From contig CAYRCK010000004.1 in assembly GCA_964422745.1 (NCBI GenBank), positions 4,497-68,496 of the forward strand: a stretch of DNA of 64,000 nucleotides. Direction: 5' to 3'. Below are positions 10,411-63,631 of the stretch, in pieces. The position numbers and the translations under genes are program-made. The notes beneath the pieces are model-generated. The model worked only from the letters and a program-made list of their open reading frames with translations. It was not told the origin of the DNA and did no database searches. This DNA is from an uncultured bacterium. GTDB lineage: Bacteria > Krumholzibacteriota > Krumholzibacteriia > Krumholzibacteriales > Krumholzibacteriaceae. Position 1 is the first letter of the stretch, and every line of letters begins with the position of its first letter.

Positions 10411-10721
10411 TTCGCCCAATAAAAAGCATATGTTTTTCGAGTACGCAGAAAGGGGGTTTACTCGAATAAAAGACCTACTAGGCAGCTTGTGGGTATAGAC
10501 TTTTTTGAGCGGACTTGCGGTGACGGCCGCACGTACCAATTTAGTGGGGATCAGGCCTGGAAGGAGGGATGCAGGAAACAGAGATTGTGGAGCGTCATCA
10601 GGCGCAGAATAGGTGACCAAGTAACTGGGACGAAATTCGCATGTTGATGCGGTGATATAGAATGGATGTTCCTGAAAGAACTTATCCTGATCAATGGAGA
10701 GTAACTTACAGGGGGAAAGTA

Positions 10722-11984
10722 ATGAAGAAACTATTTCTTTTGATGTTGACGATGGCCGTGGCGGTCTCATTCGCGATGCCGGCGATGGCTACCGATGCCA
10801 GGGTGATGGCTCTGGGCAACACTCAGAACTATCTCGAGGATGATTACAACATCTTCGCATGGCCTGCAACGCTGCCGAGCTACGCCAACCTGGTAATGAT
10901 CGGTCTCTGCGGAGACCCGGATTACTGCTGCGAGTACTACTACCCTTACTACGCTAACGGATGGGAAGGATACTACTGCCAGACCATCATGGGCGGAATC
11001 CTTGGCCTCGGCGAGGACAACAAGTACGGGGCGTTGGGAATGTTCTTCTTCGAGGGCACTCCCGGAATAAACCCCATTCCGTACAGTGAATTCTACGGCG
11101 CTTGGGAATTCGAGTACCTTTTCGCCAGCACAATCTACAACAAGTTCAACGTTCTCTGGGGATACGACATGGAGGGCCTGTCCTTCGGTTTCAACTTCGA
11201 GAGAGCAGACCAGATGTGGAAGGAAGAGAACGACGTAGAGTACGAGAATAAGCATGCCTATACCAAGTTCGCGGCCAGTGTCCGTTTCGATGTCGGCGAG
11301 GCCGGCTATGCGGACCTGGCCTTCAACGTGGCATTCGCCTCGATGACGGACACGCTTGATGGCTACGGTGAGAGGACCGAGGACGGCAACATGCTGTGGG
11401 GTGTCCAGGGCCGCATGTTCTACGAGTACAGCGAGATGTTCACATTCGTGCCGTACATCGGTGTGAGCATGTTCGACTTCTCCACGAAGGTGCAGCGCAA
11501 CAGCGAGGATTACGCGGATTACTACTACGGCGAGAAGGGCATGATGTTCAATACCGGCTTCGGTATCGACATGACGGTCAACGAGGACAACATGCTGCTC
11601 TTCGCCATCGAGCCCTATTCCTTCGGCAAGTTCGAGCCGTCGGAGCCGCCCGACGGAGTCGAGGCATGGGGCAAGGTCGTGTACTTCCCGCGTTTCCGCC
11701 TGGCTCTCGAGAGCGATGTCAAGGACTGGCTGACCTTCAGAGCCGGCTGCGTGAAGGAGCTCCAGAAGACGGAGGTCTTCTACAGCTATGAGGACGACGA
11801 GTCGACGTACACCGATACCTGTGGTGATTTCTACTACATGATGGGTCTCGGCTTCCACATCGGCGACTTCGACATCGACTGCGTAGTCAACAACGAGCTT
11901 CCATTCACGATGGGATACTGGCTGACCGGATTCGAGAACACGGAGCAGCCGATCTGGATGCTTACGGCGCTCTACCACTTCTAA
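10722..11984 (+). CDS. Outer-membrane beta-barrel protein, aromatic/acidic-rich, uncharacterised (probably abundant OMP)
   Basis: RBS GGGGGAAAG 4 nt before ATG 10722. Signal peptide MKKLFLLMLTMAVAVSFAMPAMA. C-terminal LYHF (terminal Phe typical of OM barrels). Strong bias to C/G-ending codons unlike neighbours. Promoter and strong terminator flank it. Confidence 0.55.
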   Translation: MKKLFLLMLTMAVAVSFAMPAMATDARVMALGNTQNYLEDDYNIFAWPATLPSYANLVMIGLCGDPDYCCEYYYPYYANGWEGYYCQTIMGGILGLGEDNKYGALGMFFFEGTPGINPIPYSEFYGAWEFEYLFASTIYNKFNVLWGYDMEGLSFGFNFERADQMWKEENDVEYENKHAYTKFAASVRFDVGEAGYADLAFNVAFASMTDTLDGYGERTEDGNMLWGVQGRMFYEYSEMFTFVPYIGVSMFDFSTKVQRNSEDYADYYYGEKGMMFNTGFGIDMTVNEDNMLLFAIEPYSFGKFEPSEPPDGVEAWGKVVYFPRFRLALESDVKDWLTFRAGCVKELQKTEVFYSYEDDESTYTDTCGDFYYMMGLGFHIGDFDIDCVVNNELPFTMGYWLTGFENTEQPIWMLTALYHF

Positions 11985-16115: not shown

Positions 16116-16613
16116 TTGTATCTATTCCGTGTGATAATAGGATCGCTAATCGTATTCATCCTCCAGGTCACGATGGTGCCCCGCATGACCGTAGGAGGCA
16201 TATCGCCGGATCTGATGGTCATCCTGCTCGTGATCCTCGTCAAGGGCAAGAACGCGGTTTTCGCCGTCGTTGTGGGTTTTCTGCTTGGATTTCTGCAGGA
16301 CCTGGGTAACGCGTCCTATCTCGGAATGAACGCTCTGGCAAAATCGGTGGTTGGGTATGGCATATTCCAGGCCTGCGGGGGATTGTTTCCGGACAATGTG
16401 ATTTTCAGGGGACTTTTGATCCTCGGTGCATCGCTTGTCAACGATATTATAATTCTCACGATCACAACCTCTGTATCTCTCACAGATATCTTCTCGTGGT
16501 TCTTCAAGTTCTCCGTCTTGTCGGGTATCAGCACGGCCGTCATCGGTGTGATCGTGCTGGAAATCATCAATGCTGCTACGAGAAGGAGGACCAGGACCGA
16601 TGGCGGATTTTGA
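16116..16613 (+). CDS. mreD: Rod shape-determining protein MreD
   Basis: Small polytopic membrane protein (165 aa) between mreC and PBP2. Confidence 0.7.
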   Translation: MYLFRVIIGSLIVFILQVTMVPRMTVGGISPDLMVILLVILVKGKNAVFAVVVGFLLGFLQDLGNASYLGMNALAKSVVGYGIFQACGGLFPDNVIFRGLLILGASLVNDIIILTITTSVSLTDIFSWFFKFSVLSGISTAVIGVIVLEIINAATRRRTRTDGGF

Positions 16614-18564
16614 CAGGCAGGAAGGACCGGTCCTGATGCTCCGCAGGAGAAATCTCGTCGTCCTCCTGCTCGGAGCGATCGCCCTGCTGACGGGAAGACT
16701 TTTCTACCTGCAGGTGATCCGGCACGATTACTACAGCAGGCAGGCTTTTTTCAACAGGATTCAGAGAGAACGGATCGTGGCTCCAAGGGGCTTGATAAGG
16801 GCCAGGGACGGCTCGAAGCTTGTCGTGAACGTGCCGGTCTACCAGATATGCATCCTTCCCCATAGAGCCAGGAACGTGGAATCGAGTTTGGGGCTGGCAT
16901 GTGAGCTTCTATCGATAGATGAGGACAAGCTTCAGAGGGATATAGACTCCTGGATCGGCAAGTATCCCGACGGCAGAAGCATGACGGTGGTTCAAGCGGC
17001 GGACAAGAGACAGATATCCGTGTTGATGGAGAACCGAGCCCTATTCCCCTTCTTCAAGCTCGTCATGAAGCACAGGCGCCAGTATCCGGAAGATTCCCTC
17101 GCCGTGCATATGCTCGGTCAGGTGGGGGAAGTAACGGACCAGGAGCTAAAGGATTCGAAGAGCCTGCATCCCGGCGATATCGTGGGTCGTGCCGGTGTGG
17201 AGTATACATACGACGATTATCTAAAGGGAAAGGACGGGGTTAGGATAATCGAGATGAGCGCGGGTGGAGAGCGTATAGAGGAGCTGGAAGGGCTATTCAA
17301 GTATGAGGATCCCGAGGGTGTCGTGGGGGCTCGTCCGTCGATCCCCGGCAGTGATATATACCTGACGATAGACCTGGCTCTGCAGAGGGTTGTGGAAGGC
17401 GCGTTCAAATGGAACAAGGGTAGTGTTATAGCCATGGATCCATCGAACGGGGAAATTCTTGCGGCGGTCAGTCGGCCCGCTTTCGATCCGAACATCTCTC
17501 TCAGCGGAACGATGGGTGAGAAGTGGCAGGATCTCTACGAAAATCCCGATAAACCGTTGTTCAACAGGACGGTACAGGCCCTGTATCCGCCCGGCTCTAT
17601 ATTCAAGCTGATTACAGGCTATGCGGCCGTGGTGAACGGATTGGTCTCGATCGACGAACGACTGGAACCGTGCTTTGGAGGATACCAGTTCGGGAATCGG
17701 TTCTTCCGCTGCTGGCTGCCGGAGGGCCATGGTTCGCTGTCTCTCTCCGGCGCTTTGATATATTCCTGTGATACGTATTTCTATCAGATCGGAAAGGTTT
17801 TAAGCGCCGATCAATTCGCCGCGGCAGCACGGCTATTCGGACTGGGGGACGTGACCGGTGTGGATATACCGAGTGAGGCGGTGGGCATCATACCGGATCA
17901 CTCCTATTTCGACCGCAGGTTCGGCAAGAGAAAATGGACGAAGGGACACCTGCTGAACTACTCGATAGGCCAGGGTGAGGTGCTGATCACTCCCCTGCAG
18001 GCCTGTGTCATGGTTTCCGTATTTGCCAATGGAGGGAGGATGGTGCATCCGCACATAGTCAAACGAATTGTGGACGCCGATGGAATCGAGGTCTTCGAAG
18101 GCGAAGAGCGGGCCTATCCGATCCAGCGGATGAACCTGGATATCCTTCGCGTTATAAGGGATTTGATGGAAAGGGTGATTGCGGACGAGAGGGGTACGGG
18201 TAGATTCGCAGCGGTCAGGGGCTTGAGAGTAGCCGGGAAGACCGGGACCGCCCAGAATCCCCATGGTGAGGATCATGCCATCTTTGTTGCATTCGCGCCC
18301 GTTGAGTCGCCGGAGCTGGCACTGGCCATCGTGATGGAGAACGCAGGACACGGAGGTGTTATGGCCGCCCCGATAGCACGTGAGATATTTTCCAGCTACT
18401 GCGGCACGGTGGCGGGTTCGGGAACGGGAGGCGCACTTGCGGGATCGATGGTGCCGGTATGGAGCGATCGAGTTACACCGGATCGGCCGGGGTATCTGGG
18501 CGATCACGATGGTACGGTTGTGATCTCCCCGGATTCGAGAGTGAATCGCAGGGGATCGGAGTAG
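16600..18564 (+). CDS. mrdA: Penicillin-binding protein 2 (peptidoglycan D,D-transpeptidase MrdA)
   Basis: PBP dimerisation plus transpeptidase domains (SxxK, SxN, KTGT in AGKTGTAQ). Preceded by mreBCD and followed by rodA. ORF opens at 16570; ATG 16600 or 16636 plausible. Confidence 0.9.
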   Translation: MADFDRQEGPVLMLRRRNLVVLLLGAIALLTGRLFYLQVIRHDYYSRQAFFNRIQRERIVAPRGLIRARDGSKLVVNVPVYQICILPHRARNVESSLGLACELLSIDEDKLQRDIDSWIGKYPDGRSMTVVQAADKRQISVLMENRALFPFFKLVMKHRRQYPEDSLAVHMLGQVGEVTDQELKDSKSLHPGDIVGRAGVEYTYDDYLKGKDGVRIIEMSAGGERIEELEGLFKYEDPEGVVGARPSIPGSDIYLTIDLALQRVVEGAFKWNKGSVIAMDPSNGEILAAVSRPAFDPNISLSGTMGEKWQDLYENPDKPLFNRTVQALYPPGSIFKLITGYAAVVNGLVSIDERLEPCFGGYQFGNRFFRCWLPEGHGSLSLSGALIYSCDTYFYQIGKVLSADQFAAAARLFGLGDVTGVDIPSEAVGIIPDHSYFDRRFGKRKWTKGHLLNYSIGQGEVLITPLQACVMVSVFANGGRMVHPHIVKRIVDADGIEVFEGEERAYPIQRMNLDILRVIRDLMERVIADERGTGRFAAVRGLRVAGKTGTAQNPHGEDHAIFVAFAPVESPELALAIVMENAGHGGVMAAPIAREIFSSYCGTVAGSGTGGALAGSMVPVWSDRVTPDRPGYLGDHDGTVVISPDSRVNRRGSE

Positions 18565-18567
18565 AGC

Positions 18568-19854
18568 ATGAACAGCAGCATGAAGATGCCTACGAGGTAC
18601 TTCCAGGATTTCGACTGGCTGATCCTAATACCCGTTCTCGCCCTCATGCTCGTGGGCCTTCTAACACTCTACTCCGTCGGGCATGTGCCCGGCGAGCTCA
18701 GAGGTGCATTCCCGGAGGGAGAGACGCAATTTTTCCATAAGCAGGTCGTATGGAGCATTCTGGGAATTGCAGTAATGGTGATCACGTTTCTTCTGCCTTT
18801 CGGCTATTACGAGAGTACGGCGTTGTTCCTGTATCTCGCGGGAGCCCTGCTGCTGATCATCGTCCTGCTTCTCGAACCCTTCAAGGGGGCCAGCCGCTGG
18901 ATCGTGCTGGGAGGTTTCAGGTTCCAGCCGAGTGAATTCATGAAGATCGCAGTTATATTTCTGCTTGCCAGGTTTCTATCGGGAAAACGCAGCGACCCCA
19001 ACAGGCTCCGCGTTCTGGTCATAACATTCGCCGTAGTCGCGGTCCCGTTCCTGCTCGTCGTGAAGCAGCCCGATCTCGGCACATCCCTCGTGTTTCCTGC
19101 ACTTCTGTTTCCCGTCCTCTACTGGCGGGGGCTCAATGAGAGCATCTTGATGCTTTTTGTAACCCCGTTCATAAGCGCGTTCCTGACCATTTACAGCGAA
19201 TGCACGCTGGGGAGAGGATCTTATCCCTATCCGCTGCTTATCTTTTTCCTTATCATCCTGGCCATCGCGTACAAGAGGAGACACAGGTTCGTGCAGAGTG
19301 TGATGCTGGTTGTGCTGAACGTTGCCGTTATGCTGATAGTGCCAAACATATGGAGCAGGTTGCAGTTATATCAGCAGAAGAGGATTCTTGCCTTTCTGCG
19401 TCCGGAGTCAGATATTCTGGGCACCGGATGGCAGGTGTTCCAATCGAAGATATCCATCGGATCGGGCGGTTTCTTCGGCAAGCAGTTCCTGCACGGGACG
19501 CAGAAGCTGCTGGCCTTTCTGCCCGAGAGGCATTCTGATTTTGTTTATTCTGTTCTTTCGGAGGAACTCGGATTCATCGGCGCCTTTGCCGTGCTCATCC
19601 TGTTCACCGTCTTCATCGTTCGTATCCTGTATCTTACGACGAAGCTCAAGAATCGTTTCGCCTCGATCGCCTCGGTGGGCATATGTTCATATTTCACGTT
19701 TCACCTGTTCGTCAACGTTGGCATGACCATAGGACTGGCACCTGTGACCGGGCTGCCCCTGCCGTTTATAAGCTACGGGGGCAGTTCGATGATCGTGAAC
19801 TGTTTCATGGTGGGAGTGCTGCTCAATTTCAGCACCCATTTCTACGAGTATTGA
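18568..19854 (+). CDS. rodA: Rod shape-determining protein RodA (SEDS family glycosyltransferase)
   Basis: FtsW/RodA/SpoVE family 10-TM protein immediately after PBP2. Confidence 0.9.
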   Translation: MNSSMKMPTRYFQDFDWLILIPVLALMLVGLLTLYSVGHVPGELRGAFPEGETQFFHKQVVWSILGIAVMVITFLLPFGYYESTALFLYLAGALLLIIVLLLEPFKGASRWIVLGGFRFQPSEFMKIAVIFLLARFLSGKRSDPNRLRVLVITFAVVAVPFLLVVKQPDLGTSLVFPALLFPVLYWRGLNESILMLFVTPFISAFLTIYSECTLGRGSYPYPLLIFFLIILAIAYKRRHRFVQSVMLVVLNVAVMLIVPNIWSRLQLYQQKRILAFLRPESDILGTGWQVFQSKISIGSGGFFGKQFLHGTQKLLAFLPERHSDFVYSVLSEELGFIGAFAVLILFTVFIVRILYLTTKLKNRFASIASVGICSYFTFHLFVNVGMTIGLAPVTGLPLPFISYGGSSMIVNCFMVGVLLNFSTHFYEY

Positions 19855-19857
19855 GGA

Positions 19858-21195
19858 ATGATTGAATTGAGAAACATAGTCGATTTGGCGCTGCAGCTGG
19901 CAACGAAAGCGGGCGTGGAATGTGACGTGTACGGTGAAAGCAGGAGGATGCTGCAGATTCAAGTCCACGGTGGAGAACTGGAGTCAGTGGACGACGCGGT
20001 TGACGCCGGTATCGGAATAAGGGTGGTTGATGGAGGAAGGGTGGGATTCTCCTTCACCAGCGATCTGGAAGGACAGGGTGTGGAGGCGTGCATCGACGAG
20101 GCGTCCCGGAATGCATCGAACAGCTCGCCGATGGACGCCGATGTCCTGGCGGATCCGGAAAAGGGTGAGCCGCCGGGTGAGGCCTACCCGGCATATCCGC
20201 AGGATGGCGGGACCGAAGCAAAGGTGGAAAAGGCCATAGAGATGGAACGGGCCTGTCTGAAGTTCGATTCCTCCGTCGTTAATACGGAGGATGCCGTCTA
20301 CAGCGAGTATACGGGTGATGTCGTCGTCGCAGGTACGAGAGGATTTTTCCGCGGGGAGAGGCGTGGCTACTGCTGCTGTTCCGTATCCGCTATTGCTCGA
20401 AGGGGGGACGAAACCCGGAGCGGATGGTTTTACAGCCAGGCTCTACATCCGAAGGACATCGATTTTGCCGGAACGGGGCATCGGGCGGCGGTGCTTGCCG
20501 TTTCCCTGCTCGGTGGAGAAAAGGCCCGGACCAAACGTTATGCTGTTGTAGTAGACGGTGCTGCATTCACAAGCATAATCAGCTTCATGGAACGGATACT
20601 ATCCGCCGAGATGGTGGTGAAGGGAACGTCCGTTCTCTCCGGTATGCTCGGCGAGATGGTATCGGCCGATGGGGTGACCCTGATAGATGATCCGTTCATG
20701 GCTGGCGGGTGCTTCAACGCCTGTTTCGACGCCGAGGGAATGCTCACGAGAAAAAACACATTAATAGAGTCGGGTGTGTTGAGAGGTTATCTCAGCGATG
20801 CGTACTCGTCCAGAAAGCTCGGTATGCATCCGGGGGCGAACGCCGTGAGGGAATCTTTCAAAGCGAGGCTGGCGCCCGGCCCCACGAATTTGTACCTGGC
20901 CCCGGGTATCAGGTCGATCGATGACATCGTCGCGGATCTAGACGAGGGCATAATAGTCCGTGATATTATGGGAATGCATACATCGGATCCGATATCGGGC
21001 GACTTCTCGGTGGGATTCAACGGTCATACGGTTCGCGCGGGAGTCGTGTGCGGGCCGGTTTGCGAGATGACCATGAGCGGCAATATCATCGATCTTCTGG
21101 GGGGAATCAAGGAAGTGGCCGGCGATACAACATTCATCGGACCATACGGTTCTCCTGCGGTGCTTGTGGAAGGTTTGAGCCTGGGCGGGACGTAA
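19858..21195 (+). CDS. TldD/PmbA-family metallopeptidase
   Basis: PmbA_TldD family domain architecture, 445 aa. Confidence 0.8.
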   Translation: MIELRNIVDLALQLATKAGVECDVYGESRRMLQIQVHGGELESVDDAVDAGIGIRVVDGGRVGFSFTSDLEGQGVEACIDEASRNASNSSPMDADVLADPEKGEPPGEAYPAYPQDGGTEAKVEKAIEMERACLKFDSSVVNTEDAVYSEYTGDVVVAGTRGFFRGERRGYCCCSVSAIARRGDETRSGWFYSQALHPKDIDFAGTGHRAAVLAVSLLGGEKARTKRYAVVVDGAAFTSIISFMERILSAEMVVKGTSVLSGMLGEMVSADGVTLIDDPFMAGGCFNACFDAEGMLTRKNTLIESGVLRGYLSDAYSSRKLGMHPGANAVRESFKARLAPGPTNLYLAPGIRSIDDIVADLDEGIIVRDIMGMHTSDPISGDFSVGFNGHTVRAGVVCGPVCEMTMSGNIIDLLGGIKEVAGDTTFIGPYGSPAVLVEGLSLGGT

Positions 21196-29469: not shown

Positions 29470-30354
29470 GTGAGCAGATTATACGTGATTGGATTATTGG
29501 TTGTGATCGCGGCGGCGCCCGCGTTCGGCACGAACTGGTTTCTGAATCCGGACGGTAGCGGAGATGCACCTACGATCGCTGCGGCTATCGATTCCGCTGA
29601 ATCGGGGGACTGGATTATGCTGAACGGCGGCATTTACTACGAAGAGGATATCCTGCTGGATGGGAAGGATGTATCCTTCAGCTACAATCTCGGTATACCT
29701 TACATCCAGGCGGCTGTCCCCGGGACGGGGACGGGGATCACGATCAGGAACGTCTCGAACTCGAGCACGTTTTTTGGAATTAATTTCAATTTTTTCGACC
29801 AGGCCATGATTGTAGAAGATGGAGCGCCGAACATATGGTTCGTGAATTTCAATGGCTGCGGTTCATGCATAAATGTCAGCGGGGGCTCCTCAGCGCCGGA
29901 AATGGCCAACATGCTCGTGGATTCATGCACGGTTGGATTCGAGATTGCAGGGGGCAGCGGCACAGAGATAATAAACTGCACTCTGGTCAAAACGGGCAAA
30001 TGCATACTGATGTCGGGAGGTTCTGCAAGCGTATTGCGAAATATCTTTTTCCTGTCCGATACGGGCATCGAATGTATTTCCGGCTCCGCAACGCTCGACT
30101 GTAACGACTTCTGGAGAAACGATGTTAATTACGCAGGCTGTTCCGCAGGCGTCACGGACATATACGAGGATCCCATGTTCTGTATATTCAGCATCTCTTC
30201 ACCGGGCCTTTATTACCTCAACGAACTGTCTCCATGCTGGGCGGAGAACAATGCCTGCAATGTGGATATCGGAGCCTACACGACTATTGCCGGTTGCGAT
30301 ACTACTGATGTGGAGGATAGTAGCTGGGGATTCATAAAGAACATTCACCGTTGA
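29470..30354 (+). CDS. Secreted right-handed beta-helix repeat protein (pectate-lyase-like fold), function unknown
   Basis: Signal peptide (VVIAAAPAFG). Repeated short G/N/I-rich beta-helix rungs (GITIRNVSNS, NCTLVKTGKCILMSGG). Confidence 0.5.
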   Translation: MSRLYVIGLLVVIAAAPAFGTNWFLNPDGSGDAPTIAAAIDSAESGDWIMLNGGIYYEEDILLDGKDVSFSYNLGIPYIQAAVPGTGTGITIRNVSNSSTFFGINFNFFDQAMIVEDGAPNIWFVNFNGCGSCINVSGGSSAPEMANMLVDSCTVGFEIAGGSGTEIINCTLVKTGKCILMSGGSASVLRNIFFLSDTGIECISGSATLDCNDFWRNDVNYAGCSAGVTDIYEDPMFCIFSISSPGLYYLNELSPCWAENNACNVDIGAYTTIAGCDTTDVEDSSWGFIKNIHR

Positions 30355-46315: not shown

Positions 46316-46807
46316 CTACTTGAGATCGAAATTCTTGTATTTCCCCGAAGCCAGATCGAAAAGCATCCAGCCGGGTTGTTCTCTCAACCCCATAAGCTCA
46401 CCCGGATTCACCAACCACGTGCCGCCTATCCTCTCTACTTTACGTAAGTGTGTGTGCCCGTAGAATACAGCCGTGTATTGTCCCGTGCTGGCAAGTCCCC
46501 GGGCGAATTCCGGCCTGTGCGTGAATGCGACGGTTCCGTATTCCGTTTCCAGAAATCCAACATCTCCATGTATTGTGATATTGGGATACTTCATCGAAAC
46601 CTTCTCGATCGTGTAACGGTCACCCTCGTTGTTTCCAAAGACGATATCGACCGGGCCTTCGAATCCTGCGATCCGGTCTATGACGAATGGAGAGCAGAGA
46701 TCACCGCAATGAATGATCGATCCGGCTTCCGACATGTTGATTTGCCCGAGTGCACTTTCGAGATTATTCAGGTGGTCGTGAGTGTCGCTGATAACCGCAA
46801 TTTTCAT
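46316..46807 (-). CDS. Metallophosphoesterase (YfcE/MJ0936-like phosphodiesterase)
   Basis: MKIAVISDTHDHL, GDLCSP, GNNEGD, GHTHL motifs of calcineurin-like phosphoesterases. Confidence 0.8.
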   Translation of the reverse strand: MKIAVISDTHDHLNNLESALGQINMSEAGSIIHCGDLCSPFVIDRIAGFEGPVDIVFGNNEGDRYTIEKVSMKYPNITIHGDVGFLETEYGTVAFTHRPEFARGLASTGQYTAVFYGHTHLRKVERIGGTWLVNPGELMGLREQPGWMLFDLASGKYKNFDLK

Positions 46808-47217
46808 GGCAGCCCTCCATTTGCGTGCATCTTGATACGGCCGGACGCCGAGAGGATGATCTATCGGGAGATGATATCAACTTTATCACAGTTTTGACAG
46901 CGGATAAGAAGTGGAACATTTTTCCGCTGACAACTTTCATCTGTCCTCCCGGACTGAAAAGATATGCGGGCAAGCCGCGTATCGTGTGCTGTATCCGATC
47001 ACCGGGAACTCTGTAATATACTATCATCCATACACTTCGTGCTTCGGAATCCGGGCAGATGTGAGTCCGTGCCGCTCATGGCATGCCTTTTGATCGATGT
47101 ACGATCTACGTGCAGGCGGGAAGCGTATCCTGGATTCCGGATGTACGATTTGAAACGGCATGGCTCCGGCCGTGCTTGGCAGGATATGGATCAATCCGAT
47201 AGGAAAGGTGAAATCTC

Positions 47218-57662: not shown

Positions 57663-59045
57663 ATGGTAACACTATTCGGTATGCTCGAACTTAACAGGCG
57701 CAGCCTTTTGAGTTCACAGTACGCCCTTCAGACGATAAATCACAATATTGCCAATGTCAACACCGCCGGCTATTCGCGCCAACAGGTAAACATGCACACC
57801 AGCTATCCCATTAAAACGTCTTTCGGCGTTCTGGGGACGGGTGTTTCAGCGGTAAGCGTGCAGAGGGCCACGGCGGAGTTCTATACGAGACAGATGAGGA
57901 ACGAGAACTCCACTTTGGGCGGATGGGATGCGACATGCTCTGTGCTGTCGGAGATCGAGATGATTGTCAACGAACCGAGCGACACGGGATTGGCAAGCGC
58001 GCTCGATGCCTTCTTCAGTGCTTGGAACGATCTGGCTTCTGATCCGGAAAGCAGTGCGTTGAGGGTGGGAGTCGTGGAGTCGGCCAAGACGCTGTGTGAA
58101 ACGATGCACGAGATGGATCATTCATTGCAGAAAACCGGCGATAACATAGAGAGCCAGATAAAATACAATGTGGATCAATTCAACAAACTCCTGACAATGA
58201 TATCGGAGCTGAATGGAAAGATCGTTGCCACCGAATCATCCGGTGTTTCCGCCAGCGACCTTCGCGATGAACGTGACCGATTGATTCTGGAAGCGTCTAG
58301 GATCGCCAGGATAGATGTGAAGGAGGACCGTTATGGAGCTGTAGACGTTTTTCTGGGCGGCACGAATGTGGTTCACCGTTCTGAGGCGAGATATCTCGAT
58401 ACAAGCCTGGAATCGCTGTCGGGCAACAACTGGGTGGAGGTCGTGGCTGAAAACAACGGTGAGACGATAAGGGTCGAGGATGGAGAGCTGGCGGGGCTGT
58501 TGGAGGTTCGAGCCGAAAACCTCGATCAGGTGAGAAATTCCCTGGACAATATAGCGAGCATCCTGATCGCGAAGGTCAACGAGATCCACAGCCGTGGAAT
58601 GACTTCCCAGGGAAGCGGCTTTGATTTCTTCGTAGGCGAGGGGGCGGGGGATATTTCTATATCGCTGCCTATAGAGCAAAACGCGGATCTGGTAGCCACG
58701 TCCTATGACGGCACTATCGGTGACAACACGCTCGCCAACGATATCTGCACTCTGTCGGAAACCATTATTTCGGAAGATGAGCCGCTGACGATAAACGGGC
58801 TGTACGAATCGCTTGTCGCAGAGGTCGGGATCTACAGCAGGAACGCCAGGAATATGATGAGCAACCAGACGCTGATTCTGGATAATATCGAATTGAGAAA
58901 AGAGAGTATCACCGGTGTCAATCTAGATGAGGAACTCATCCAGCTGACGAAGTTCGAGCAGTCTTACGAAGCGGCAGCCAGGGTTCTGAAGACAGTTGAG
59001 GAATTGACAGATACAATTCTCGATCTCGTACAGGGGATATACTAA
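57663..59045 (+). CDS. flgK: Flagellar hook-associated protein 1 FlgK
   Basis: N-terminal rod/hook motif (LQTINHNIANVNTAGYSRQQV) and FlgK C-terminal helical domain. 460 aa. Confidence 0.85.
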   Translation: MVTLFGMLELNRRSLLSSQYALQTINHNIANVNTAGYSRQQVNMHTSYPIKTSFGVLGTGVSAVSVQRATAEFYTRQMRNENSTLGGWDATCSVLSEIEMIVNEPSDTGLASALDAFFSAWNDLASDPESSALRVGVVESAKTLCETMHEMDHSLQKTGDNIESQIKYNVDQFNKLLTMISELNGKIVATESSGVSASDLRDERDRLILEASRIARIDVKEDRYGAVDVFLGGTNVVHRSEARYLDTSLESLSGNNWVEVVAENNGETIRVEDGELAGLLEVRAENLDQVRNSLDNIASILIAKVNEIHSRGMTSQGSGFDFFVGEGAGDISISLPIEQNADLVATSYDGTIGDNTLANDICTLSETIISEDEPLTINGLYESLVAEVGIYSRNARNMMSNQTLILDNIELRKESITGVNLDEELIQLTKFEQSYEAAARVLKTVEELTDTILDLVQGIY

Positions 59046-60616
59046 TGCGGATTTCCTTCAGAATGATAAGCCGGCAGCCTTTGAAGGCGATTTTTGAAAA
59101 TCTGGAGCGCCTGACGGACCTCCAGGCGAAGGCCAGTACGATGAAGAAGTACAGCAAACCGTCCGACGATCCTCAGGCGGTAATGAAAAGCATGGGATTC
59201 AATACCCTGCTCAAGCAGAACGAGATGTACAGGACAAACGTCGGGAACGCCAGCGTATATCTGAAGATGGTTGATTCCACTCTTATTTCGGTCAAGGAAC
59301 AGCTGGATTCGGCCAAGAGGATAGCGCTCGAGCAGCGTAACGATGTATCGTCTGCCGAGATGCGCCGGGCTGCATCCATCGAAGTTCAGGGAATTATTTC
59401 AGCGGTTCAGGATCTCATGAACACGAAATTCCACGGAAAGTACCTGTTCGCCGGGCATGAGACACAGACGGTGCCGTTCCAGGAAATGAGCGGGGCTATC
59501 AGATATATGGGTGACGATGGACTCATACAGTTTCGGGTCGGAGCGGCCAGGCTGATCGATGTCACCGTGCCCGGTTCCAGGTTCGAATCTCTGGGTGGGA
59601 GCCATAGCATCGATTCTTTCACGATGATAACGTCCTTGAGCTCGGCAACCCGGCTCGAGACGCTGAACGAAGGACTTGGTGTCAGTCCCGGAAGGATAAG
59701 GTTGGAGGTGGATTCGGGTGTTTTTGTGGATATCGATCTTTCTGGAGCCGAGACGATCGAAGATATGGTCGACATGATCAACAACGGGGCCAGAGGCGCC
59801 GTACCGCCCATAAATATAATAACCGGCATCAATCCGTCATCACGTAACAGTATAGTTATTCAGCACATGGGGAGCGGCGAGATTACGGTGTCGGAGCTCG
59901 ACGGAGGCACTACGGGGGAGGATCTGGGGATTATCGGCACTAGCGTCTCGGGGATTCTGAGGGGGGCGCCTCTGGATCCGATCATGACCCTGGATACGAG
60001 GATTACGGATGTCCAGCCGATCAACAGGACTATTCTACAGCAGATAAGAGTTGTTATGGGCGAAGATAGCCACGAGGTGGATTTTTTCAGCCCAGCCTAT
60101 CCGGTGACCGTCGGGGATATGCTTTCGAGGATCATGGATTCCGTTCCGGGGCTTGAAGCGGAGATCAATGCGAGCAATGACGGAATAGTGTTCACGGCCG
60201 ATACGTCATTCAGCATCGAGGAGGTGGGTGCCGGAACCACCGCCGCCGATCTGGGTATCCTCGGAGCATCAGAGCCGTATGGTCCGTTCTCGCTTTTCGC
60301 CGCCCTCGAGACGCTTGAACAGGCACTGATACAGAATGACGGCGATGCCATCGGTCGATCCCTGGCTGAAATGGAGGAGTTGATCAACCTGATGCTGGAA
60401 GTGGAGGCGGAAATCGGCGCCAGGGGTGAACAGGTCGATATTCTCGATATCCGTCTTCAGGATTCCGACACGAGGCTTCAGGAAAACCTATCCCTGGTCG
60501 AGGACATCGATATAACCGAAGTATTGACCGAACTCTCGGAGGCCCAGCTCGCATACGAGGCCGCCCTTCAAACTGCGTCCACGCTATATAACCTGAGCCT
60601 TCTGAAATACTACTGA
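59045..60616 (+). CDS. flgL: Flagellar hook-associated protein 3 FlgL (flagellin-like)
   Basis: Flagellin-N-like start (MRISFRMI...SDDPQAVMKSM), flagellin-C-like end; long (523 aa) with large central insertion. Confidence 0.8.
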   Translation: MRISFRMISRQPLKAIFENLERLTDLQAKASTMKKYSKPSDDPQAVMKSMGFNTLLKQNEMYRTNVGNASVYLKMVDSTLISVKEQLDSAKRIALEQRNDVSSAEMRRAASIEVQGIISAVQDLMNTKFHGKYLFAGHETQTVPFQEMSGAIRYMGDDGLIQFRVGAARLIDVTVPGSRFESLGGSHSIDSFTMITSLSSATRLETLNEGLGVSPGRIRLEVDSGVFVDIDLSGAETIEDMVDMINNGARGAVPPINIITGINPSSRNSIVIQHMGSGEITVSELDGGTTGEDLGIIGTSVSGILRGAPLDPIMTLDTRITDVQPINRTILQQIRVVMGEDSHEVDFFSPAYPVTVGDMLSRIMDSVPGLEAEINASNDGIVFTADTSFSIEEVGAGTTAADLGILGASEPYGPFSLFAALETLEQALIQNDGDAIGRSLAEMEELINLMLEVEAEIGARGEQVDILDIRLQDSDTRLQENLSLVEDIDITEVLTELSEAQLAYEAALQTASTLYNLSLLKYY

Positions 60617-60641
60617 TGACCGGATTACGGAGGTATTTGCA

Positions 60642-61112
60642 ATGAAAATAGGGTCGTCCCGCTTCGACGAGGTTGAGATTGATGACAAGGACGTAATGAA
60701 CTTCGAGAGAGGTATCATAGGATTTCCAAGCCTCAAGAGATTCGTGTTGATGGATTTCTCGGACTCGTCCCCATTTCACTGGTTGCAGTCGATTGATGAG
60801 CCGGAGGTCGGCTTCGTCGTCTCAGATCCCGGTGTTTTTATCGAGAATTATGTCGTGAACATAGATGATGATACGAAACAACTGCTTTGAGTGGATAAAG
60901 ACAGTGAGATGGTTGTGATGATCGTTGTAACCGTTAAGGATGGAGGCAGGGATGTCTCGGGCAACCTTATGGGCCCTATTATAGTGAATGCGGATAAGCG
61001 CTTGGGCTGCCAGGTAGTGATCAATACGCCGGATTACAACACGAGAACCCCAATGAAGAATGACGCCGGCATCGGGCGATCGAGCAAGGCAAACATCGGC
61101 GTCGCGGTTTAA
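60642..61112 (+). pseudogene. fliW: Flagellar assembly factor FliW interrupted by an in-frame TGA (60888-60890); two halves in the same frame
   Basis: Residues 1-82 (GFPSLKRFVLMDFSDSSPFHWLQSIDEPEVGFVVSDPGVFIENY) plus residues after the stop (VVMIVVTVKDGGRDVSGNLMGPIIVNADKRLGCQVV) align colinearly with FliW. TGA terminates many other genes here. Confidence 0.7.
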
Positions 61113-61120
61113 GGGGAAAG

Positions 61121-61366
61121 ATGCTGGTACTCACGAGAAAGATCAACGAGAAGATCGTTATCTCGGCCGATATAGTGGTTACCGTCCTCACTGTAGACGG
61201 GGATCAGGTCAGGCTCGGTATAGAAGCGCCGTCCGATATCAGTGTCCACAGGCAGGAAGTGTTCGATGAGATAATCAGGTCGAACCGGCAGGCCATTCAA
61301 AAGAGCAACAACAGGGCGGATATTCTCCAATCGATCCTGAGCGGCAGAAGCAAGGGAAACGGCTGA
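61121..61366 (+). CDS. csrA: Carbon storage regulator CsrA (flagellin translation repressor)
   Basis: [51 protein letters not shown] canonical CsrA. fliW-csrA-flagellin synteny. Confidence 0.9.
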
Positions 61367-61447
61367 TCCCCCCGCTGTTCGCGAAAACCATTCCAGAAAA
61401 ATACAGCACATATCTCCATAATACGCAGCGATCCCGAAAAATTTCAC

Positions 61448-61475
61448 TAAAGATCACATTCATTCCATCCGATAG
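61448..61475 (+). promoter_or_regulatory. Putative sigma-28 (FliA/SigD) promoter for flagellin
   Basis: TAAA (61448-51), 16 nt, tCCGATAg (61468-75) versus consensus TAAA-N15-GCCGATAA; about 140 nt upstream of the fliC ATG. Confidence 0.45.
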
Positions 61476-61555
61476 ATGTGGATGAAGATGGGGGAACCTT
61501 TCCGAATCCGGACCGGCGCACCGTTTGTAAGGTATTAGAAGTGTGCCGGTGCGGT

Positions 61556-61606
61556 AACAAGGAAGCCGGAAAGGTGAGAGTGAGGTCCTACGTCCAAGGA
61601 AGGAGG
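61556..61606 (+). promoter_or_regulatory. Putative CsrA-binding GGA motifs in the flagellin leader (one overlapping the Shine-Dalgarno)
   Basis: AACAAGGAAGC (61556-66) flanked by CCGG...CCGG able to present GGA in a loop. Second site CCAAGGAAGGAGG (61594-606) is the SD, 8 nt before ATG 61614. Confidence 0.4.
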
Positions 61607-61613
61607 TCGTTAA

Positions 61614-63002
61614 ATGGGCTTCAGAATCAACCACAATATCAGCAGTATCAACGCGCTGAGAAACCTGGCTCTGACCGAGTCCAGCGTCGCGAAATCTCTC
61701 GAGAGGTTGAGCTCGGGACTTCGCGTAAACAGGGGTGCCGATGATCCGGCGGGTCTCGTGATCTCCGAGAACATGAGATCTCAGATATCCGGAATCCAGC
61801 AGGCCATCGAGAACGCCGAGACCGCAACGGCGATGATACAGACCGCGGAGGGAGCGATGACAGAGATCCACACGCTCCTAAACAATATCCGCGAGCTGGC
61901 CATCCATGCCGCCAACACCGGTGCCAACGATTCCGTGATGCTGGCAGCGGATCAGGACGAGATCACGAACGCGATCGCGACCATCGACAGGATAGCCAGC
62001 CAGACACAGTTCGGCGTTAAGAAGCTGCTCGACGGTTCGAGCGGTGTGACCGGAACGTCCAACGACAGCGATGTGACGTTCCTGTCCGCATCGGAGAATA
62101 CGATTGCCGGTTCCTACGCTGTAGATATCACTACCCAGGCGGAGCAGGCTATATCGACGGCAGGTACCAACCAGACGGCCGCTCTCGGTGCCGCCGAGAC
62201 CCTGACGATTCAGGGGGTTGCGATCAACCTGACGGCCGGTATGACTCAGGCCCAGGTCGTAACCACGATCAACAACTACAACGCGTCGACAGGTGTTACG
62301 GCGTCCGTCGTCGGTGGCGCGCTGACTCTTACGACCGATATGTACGGCAGCAATGTCGACATATCCGTCGTATCGAACGTCGCGGCCGCCACGACCAGCA
62401 CAGGTGTCGGTACGACTCCGATCACGGACAGCGGAGTCGATATCGCCGGTACTCTCGGCGGGCTGGCCGCCACGGGTAACGGAAAGGTCCTGACCGGTGA
62501 CGATGGATTGGCCGTCGAGGGTCTCTCGATCGAGTCGATCGCTACTGGTGCCCAGGGAGCGATTACGATTGTCAACAATTCGCTCGTGTTCCAGGTTGGG
62601 CCCAATGCCAACCAGACGGTCGAGATCGCGCTCAACGCCATGAGCTCGACGACCCTAGGCGCCGGCGTCTCAGGCAATCTGTTCAATAACTTGAGCGAGA
62701 TCGACGTCACGACTGCCGAAAACGCCCAGGATTCGATCCTGCTGATCGACGACGCAATTCAGGATGTCTCGGCCAAGCGAGGCGAGCTCGGTGCGTTCCA
62801 GAAGAACACTCTGGAGAGCAATACGAGAAACCTCGCCATCGCCGAGGAGAACCTCGTAGCGGCGGAATCGGTGATACGTGATACCGATTTCGCAAAGGAA
62901 ATGGCCCAGATGACAAAGAGCCAGATCCTGCTACAGTCCGGCACCGCCATGTTGGTGCAGGCGAACCAGATTCCTCAGGTTGTGCTGCAGCTGCTGCAGT
63001 AA
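61614..63002 (+). CDS. fliC: Flagellin
   Basis: MGFRINHNISSINALRNL...GLRVNRGADDPAGLVISE N-terminal D0/D1. C-terminal VIRDTDFAKEMAQMTKSQILLQSGTAMLVQANQIPQ. S/T/G/A-rich central variable domain. 462 aa. Confidence 0.95.
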   Translation: MGFRINHNISSINALRNLALTESSVAKSLERLSSGLRVNRGADDPAGLVISENMRSQISGIQQAIENAETATAMIQTAEGAMTEIHTLLNNIRELAIHAANTGANDSVMLAADQDEITNAIATIDRIASQTQFGVKKLLDGSSGVTGTSNDSDVTFLSASENTIAGSYAVDITTQAEQAISTAGTNQTAALGAAETLTIQGVAINLTAGMTQAQVVTTINNYNASTGVTASVVGGALTLTTDMYGSNVDISVVSNVAAATTSTGVGTTPITDSGVDIAGTLGGLAATGNGKVLTGDDGLAVEGLSIESIATGAQGAITIVNNSLVFQVGPNANQTVEIALNAMSSTTLGAGVSGNLFNNLSEIDVTTAENAQDSILLIDDAIQDVSAKRGELGAFQKNTLESNTRNLAIAEENLVAAESVIRDTDFAKEMAQMTKSQILLQSGTAMLVQANQIPQVVLQLLQ

Positions 63003-63468: not shown

Positions 63469-63631
63469 TGGAGCCTTTCTCTCTGCAAAGATAGCCGCCG
63501 CGTGATCATCCGATAGGCATAATTTTCCCATATGGAATTTTACTTAAAGAAGTTACATCGTTATGCCGATAGTAATTATATATAGGTATCGTCTCACGTA
63601 TGGGACCGGTTTGAAAGGAGACTAGTTAGCG

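Follow-up and report, generated by a model that had tools for sequence, protein, structure and literature searches.

The in-frame stop codon that divides fliW in this stretch of DNA is a private CGA-to-TGA transition, which is either a recent null allele or a consensus error. By our reading, one C-to-T transition at position 60888 of the window, i.e., of the whole stretch of 64,000 bases that was analysed, would have changed the Arg83 codon CGA into TGA in an otherwise ordinary fliW. Nothing sets this stop apart from ordinary strain-private nonsense SNPs, a known class, or from a consensus error, and the fliW-csrA-flagellin module in which it lies is canonical.

The Interrupted fliW Frame

Inspection of the open reading frames revealed that positions 60642-61112 form a single FliW frame, broken by an in-frame TGA at 60888-60890 (Table 1). 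The preliminary description of this DNA had reported two small ORFs that are contiguous in one frame and colinear with FliW, and this is indeed the case: the joined halves match the Pfam FliW profile PF02623 over positions 2-121 of 122 with 126.5 bits (cut-off 25), and each half matches its own part of the profile. As had also been described, the TGA stands in for exactly one residue, which is Arg in the conspecific contigs and Lys or Glu in relatives, a GTG follows directly on the stop (TGAGTG), and both partner genes, csrA and the flagellin gene, are whole. This assembly itself does not carry a working fliW frame, with the TGA at codon 83, whereas the frame is uninterrupted in the seven sister accessions that cover the site.

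TABLE 1. Features of the flagellin control region and variable sites in the window.
Feature	Position	Strand	Remarks
Variable site	25756		Synonymous in pgk; two samples differ
Variable site	27396		SecG G79W; one sample differs (JGI 3300029258)
Variable site	46339		Y157H in a metallophosphatase; one assembly differs (ERZ27256778)
Third sigma-28-type match	46862-46885	-	Pattern search
Variable site	48354		Intergenic; window alone differs
fliW, 5' part, ending in the premature TGA	60642-60890	+	82 codons; Pfam FliW 2-65
Variable site	60888		FliW R83*; window alone differs
Premature stop TGA	60888-60890	+	T at 60888 here; C (CGA, Arg83) in 7/7 other accessions covering the site
fliW, 3' part, GTG as first codon	60891-61112	+	73 codons; Pfam FliW 68-121; carries N108, G122, Q124
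fliW stop TAA overlapping the csrA Shine-Dalgarno sequence (TAAGGGG), 8-nt spacer to ATG	61110-61120	+	Sequence
csrA, intact, 81 aa	61121-61366	+	Pfam CsrA PF02599, 83 bits; N55, long C-terminal tail
Sigma-28-like promoter TAAAG-N16-CCGATA, upstream of flagellin	61448-61474	+	Consensus match only
Two CAAGGAAG motifs, flagellin leader	61558-61565, 61595-61602	+	Candidate CsrA sites; putative CsrA binding
Flagellin, intact, 462 aa	61614-63002	+	Pfam Flagellin_N and Flagellin_C recorded on identical product
Sigma-28-type match ahead of the fliD region	63545-63571		Pattern search

Sister Assemblies and the Private Allele

Sister contigs were gathered by exact look-ups of the CsrA, the FlgL, and four other proteins of the window, and derive from eight other accessions (ENA ERZ27256778 and ERZ27256770; JGI 3300017989, 3300029258, and 3300029267; Logan SRR6963479, SRR6963311, and SRR14699969). 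Together they leave no part of the 64,000 bases uncovered, with 3.8 accessions per position on average. A SNP census by alignment of the window with these contigs yielded 5 variable sites in 64 kb (Table 1). With this small number of variable sites in nine assemblies, the population is almost clonal.

At position 60888, a C is present in ERZ27256778, ERZ27256770, JGI 3300017989, 3300029258, and 3300029267, SRR6963479, and SRR14699969; several of these seven accessions may re-assemble overlapping read sets and they do not represent seven independent samples. Around this position, over up to 7.5 kb, they are otherwise identical to the window, and for the 5' part of fliW base 60888 is the sole difference from the other assemblies. 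On the sister contigs the CGA allele results in a called, unbroken FliW of 156 aa. In the protein collection this intact protein comes from contigs of JGI and ENA with a length of approximately 146.9 kb, whereas the split products, a half of 82 aa and a 64-aa call for the other half, are recorded from a single NCBI contig only (146,547 bp), evidently the origin of the window. An exact pattern of 46 nt, in which the variable base was given as Y, recovered neither allele from genome_contigs or metagenome_contigs. The preliminary description had considered a sense codon at the position of the stop as evidence against a genuine split of the gene. CGA is indeed found there in the seven near-clonal assemblies, a result that concerns these assemblies and not the source sample's own reads.

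These data also fit a sequencing, consensus, or assembly error, in which case the source organism has CGA and the T is an artefact. All other assemblies covering 60888 have a C and no second assembly has the T, the window is otherwise virtually identical to its sisters (one other private difference in 64 kb), C-to-T is the usual direction of damage and error, and contig ends clustered within fliW hint at an awkward assembly. Such an artefact could have arisen if the assembler followed a minor-allele path, during polishing, or through damage by deamination of cytosine. However, the consensus of short reads is seldom wrong at covered positions, and the single private allele in each of two other assemblies, in the parts fetched, suits natural micro-diversity equally well. 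An error is, therefore, a possible but somewhat doubtful explanation of the T.

We infer instead that the T probably represents a real nonsense allele of very recent origin, within an environmental population that is near-clonal. The substitution itself, its uniqueness, the intact genes of conspecifics and relatives, and the positions of the residues that contact CsrA (see below) are established. Private variants are normal in this population, since other assemblies, i.e., ERZ27256778 (46339) and JGI 3300029258 (27396), also carry one each in the parts fetched, and for the same reason the two private sites of the window in 64 kb do not seem exceptional. Furthermore, three out of four coding variants (FliW R83*, SecG G79W, and Y157H at 46339) alter the protein, as would be expected in a clonal bloom with young mutations that have not yet been purged. 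The allele is in this respect like ordinary strain-private pseudogenes and nonsense polymorphisms in MAGs, as it concerns a single base, is absent from sisters and relatives, and is accompanied by no recoding signal.

Contigs of several assemblies (seven loci) have ends that bunch within fliW, at 60660-60887. Three assemblies have a contig that starts at 60660 exactly, one has a start at 60790, and one contig ends at 60678. The start of another sister contig, at 60887, immediately precedes the variable site. An inverted repeat of 5 bp (TCGTC...GACGA) lies across 60654-60670. The contig ends may reflect a second haplotype or strain heterogeneity, a structural variant, or plain low coverage.

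More Distant FliW Relatives

The closest other FliW proteins show 46-56% identity; some belong to MAGs that carry the label Candidatus Latescibacteria or Candidatus Krumholzibacteriota, others to unnamed bins. In all of these distant relatives, of which those from Latescibacteria/Krumholzibacteriota MAGs show 46-53% identity, fliW is uninterrupted, with Lys or Glu aligned to the stop. Neither Cys nor Trp occurs at this column in any homolog of the FliW alignment, and neither two half-genes nor a TGA at this column occurs in any of the relative lineages compared. The comparison of orthologous genes that the preliminary description had proposed thus finds one unbroken gene in every relative.

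Stop Codon Usage and Recoding

Stop codon usage was examined with 48 genes called on the sister contigs and mapped onto the window. TGA terminates 20 of these genes, TAA 15, and TAG 13, and internal TGA, TAA, or TAG codons are absent from the other 47 mapped genes, in agreement with the earlier observation that TGA is a true stop elsewhere in this DNA. If TGA were reassigned throughout the genome (genetic code 4 or 25), the lone in-frame TGA would be accounted for, but this reading finds no support otherwise; it is contradicted by the many genes that end in TGA and by the lack of internal stops in the remaining genes, and the gene callers applied to the sister contigs yield equal gene lengths with Pfam domains. 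We consider it hardly conceivable, and genome-wide recoding of TGA was rejected on the basis of this census.

A more local form of recoding would be a maintained one, in which the UGA is read through (as Trp or Sec), or termination is followed by a restart at the GTG, so that a full-length FliW or two assembling halves are produced. The sequence TGAGTG does place a start codon straight after the stop, and in E. coli a G after the UGA does not provide the strongest context for termination. However, the arrangement is not conserved, with CGA in the conspecifics and a single unbroken gene with Lys or Glu in the relatives, and no homolog has Cys or Trp at this column. The predicted fold of the 63 nt that start at the UGA is no better than that of shuffled sequences (z = -0.39), in agreement with the earlier remark that no SECIS-like hairpin is obvious by eye; Rfam gave no match in 60000-62000, and inspection of the sequence revealed no Shine-Dalgarno sequence ahead of the GTG at 60891. 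Moreover, FliW and the CsrA dimer act in a ratio of roughly 1:1 (PMC6529632), for which trace readthrough would be insufficient. Maintained recoding or a two-part gene is, therefore, highly improbable.

Selenocysteine was considered separately and rejected, as there is no downstream SECIS hairpin and the homologous position is Arg in conspecifics and Lys or Glu in relatives but never Cys or Sec. No tRNA-Sec is present in the window, where a tRNA-Leu is the sole tRNA. Taken together, selenocysteine, programmed readthrough, a conserved two-part gene, and maintained termination-restart are all very unlikely. Of the four options raised in the preliminary description, the CGA in the seven sister assemblies backs two, a recent null mutation and an error of sequencing or assembly; conserved readthrough and two half-genes are not supported, with uninterrupted relatives and no hairpin.

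The fliW-csrA-Flagellin Module

The FliW-CsrA-flagellin partner switch is known from B. subtilis, where the flagellin is Hag, and also from Campylobacter jejuni, Clostridioides difficile, Borrelia, Helicobacter, and Geobacter. The region studied here resembles the B. subtilis FliW-CsrA-Hag module in its gene order (flgN-flgK-flgL-fliW-csrA, then flagellin), in the presence of N108, G122, and Q124 in FliW and of a C-terminal tail and N55 in CsrA, in the start of csrA just past the fliW stop, and in a flagellin leader with two GGA motifs, one of which lies over the Shine-Dalgarno sequence, and a sigma-28-like promoter. The Asn at residue 55 of CsrA was identified by ungapped alignment to B. subtilis CsrA (1T3O), and the protein has 81 aa, compared to 61 residues in the CsrA chain 1Y00.

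There are also differences. The fliW and csrA frames are separated by an 8-nt spacer and do not overlap, whereas those of B. subtilis overlap (PMC6529632). Position 123 of FliW is Cys and not Lys as in the Bacillales and, consequently, the Bacillales-type K123-D41 salt bridge is absent. Finally, the B. subtilis module lacks the premature fliW stop that is found here, in one assembly.

A pattern search for sigma-28-type promoters resulted in 3 matches in the window, compared to 0.35 expected (Table 1); the two ahead of flagellin and of the fliD region have the form TAAAG-N16-[C/G]CGATA. The flagellin leader (61484-61613) folds far below its shuffles (MFE -54.7 kcal/mol, z = -3.75). In the predicted structure the second CAAGGAAG motif, which overlaps the Shine-Dalgarno sequence GGAGG, sits in a hairpin loop and the other motif in an unpaired stretch; as modelled, the two look like a CsrA-binding pair.

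Just upstream of fliW, positions 59045-60616 encode a long FlgL-like hook-filament junction protein of 523 aa, in which Flagellin_N is the sole recognised domain and approximately 300 central residues are unassigned. Elsewhere in the window, PBP2, rodA, and pmbA/tldD (16600-21195) share one reading frame, with a stop codon plus 3 nt between the genes. This tight packing suggests, from the sequence, translational coupling along the mreBCD-pbp2-rodA cluster. For two sizeable genes, at 10662-11984 (440 aa) and 29470-30354 (294 aa), the precomputed annotations of identical sister contigs list no Pfam hit.

Consequences for FliW

If the allele is real, it would affect FliW itself. The FliW of the window aligns without shift to the Geobacillus FliW of the FliW-CsrA complex (PDB 5DMB; E = 1e-27). 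The contact residues were placed by means of this alignment since an AlphaFold2 model was poor (mean pLDDT 42.8; 4-sequence alignment). Asn108, Gly122, and Gln124, the numbering of which is colinear with that of 5DMB, are invariant in the alignment of relatives. In B. subtilis, FliW alleles that abolish the inhibition of CsrA affect N108, A122, K123, and Q124 (bioRxiv 10.1101/2020.07.02.184341). All CsrA-contact positions are encoded 3' of codon 83 and are missing from the 82-aa product, and because of this position the fragment should be unable to antagonise CsrA. The truncated FliW, without its C-terminal half (N108, G122, Q124), would thus have lost its function save for trace UGA readthrough. 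With a FliW:CsrA dimer stoichiometry of about 1:1 (PMC6529632), however, such trace readthrough would not rescue FliW.

Consequences for CsrA and Flagellin

The preliminary description predicted that loss of FliW with CsrA intact should lock flagellin translation off. This prediction goes too far. When a stop (E71*) was engineered midway along the fliW of B. subtilis, both FliW and CsrA were lost via translational coupling (Oshiro et al., 2019; PMC6529632), and the fliW E71* strain resembled a fliW csrA double deletion, which is motile. CsrA was abundant and unopposed only with an in-frame fliW deletion that keeps the coupling (PMC6529632). The allele studied here is like fliW E71* in being a nonsense codon in the middle of fliW with csrA closely downstream. 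It differs from this laboratory-made allele in being natural or an artefact, and in the GTG directly after the stop.

Coupling of csrA translation to fliW is plausible in this genome too, by analogy, because the csrA Shine-Dalgarno sequence overlaps the fliW stop and this layout of stop, 8 nt, and ATG is kept in four Latescibacteria/Krumholzibacteriota relatives. However, the two frames do not overlap, and the predicted pairing of this Shine-Dalgarno sequence with the upstream coding sequence is not significant (z = -0.26). If the coupling known from B. subtilis also holds here, CsrA would fall too and flagellin would be made without homeostatic control. If, in contrast, csrA uses its own Shine-Dalgarno sequence, or ribosomes restart at the GTG at 60891 and continue to the fliW stop, free CsrA would repress flagellin translation. 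A locked-off flagellin is, therefore, just one of two possible outcomes, and both phenotypes are predictions by analogy.

It may also be asked whether the T allele, besides being real, forms the majority in the sample and represents a naturally selected loss of function in the flagellin homeostasis switch. We regard this as unlikely. If true, the filament protein would be either shut off, with CsrA active via the GTG restart, or deregulated, and the selective pressure could be a flagellum-targeting phage or a sessile niche. It would then provide a field example of motility switched off through fliW in an uncultured Latescibacteria/Krumholzibacteriota-like bacterium, an affinity drawn from its FliW relatives.

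Implications

The biological weight of this single stop codon is small. It does call for caution: sister assemblies should be consulted before a lone in-frame stop in a MAG is taken as a sign of recoding or loss of regulation. Likewise, the observation that csrA is intact is insufficient to predict the effect of a fliW nonsense codon, since the expression of csrA can depend on the translation of fliW. A real allele would be a minor case of micro-diversity, deleterious or adaptive, that affects a flagellar regulator in an uncultured lineage.
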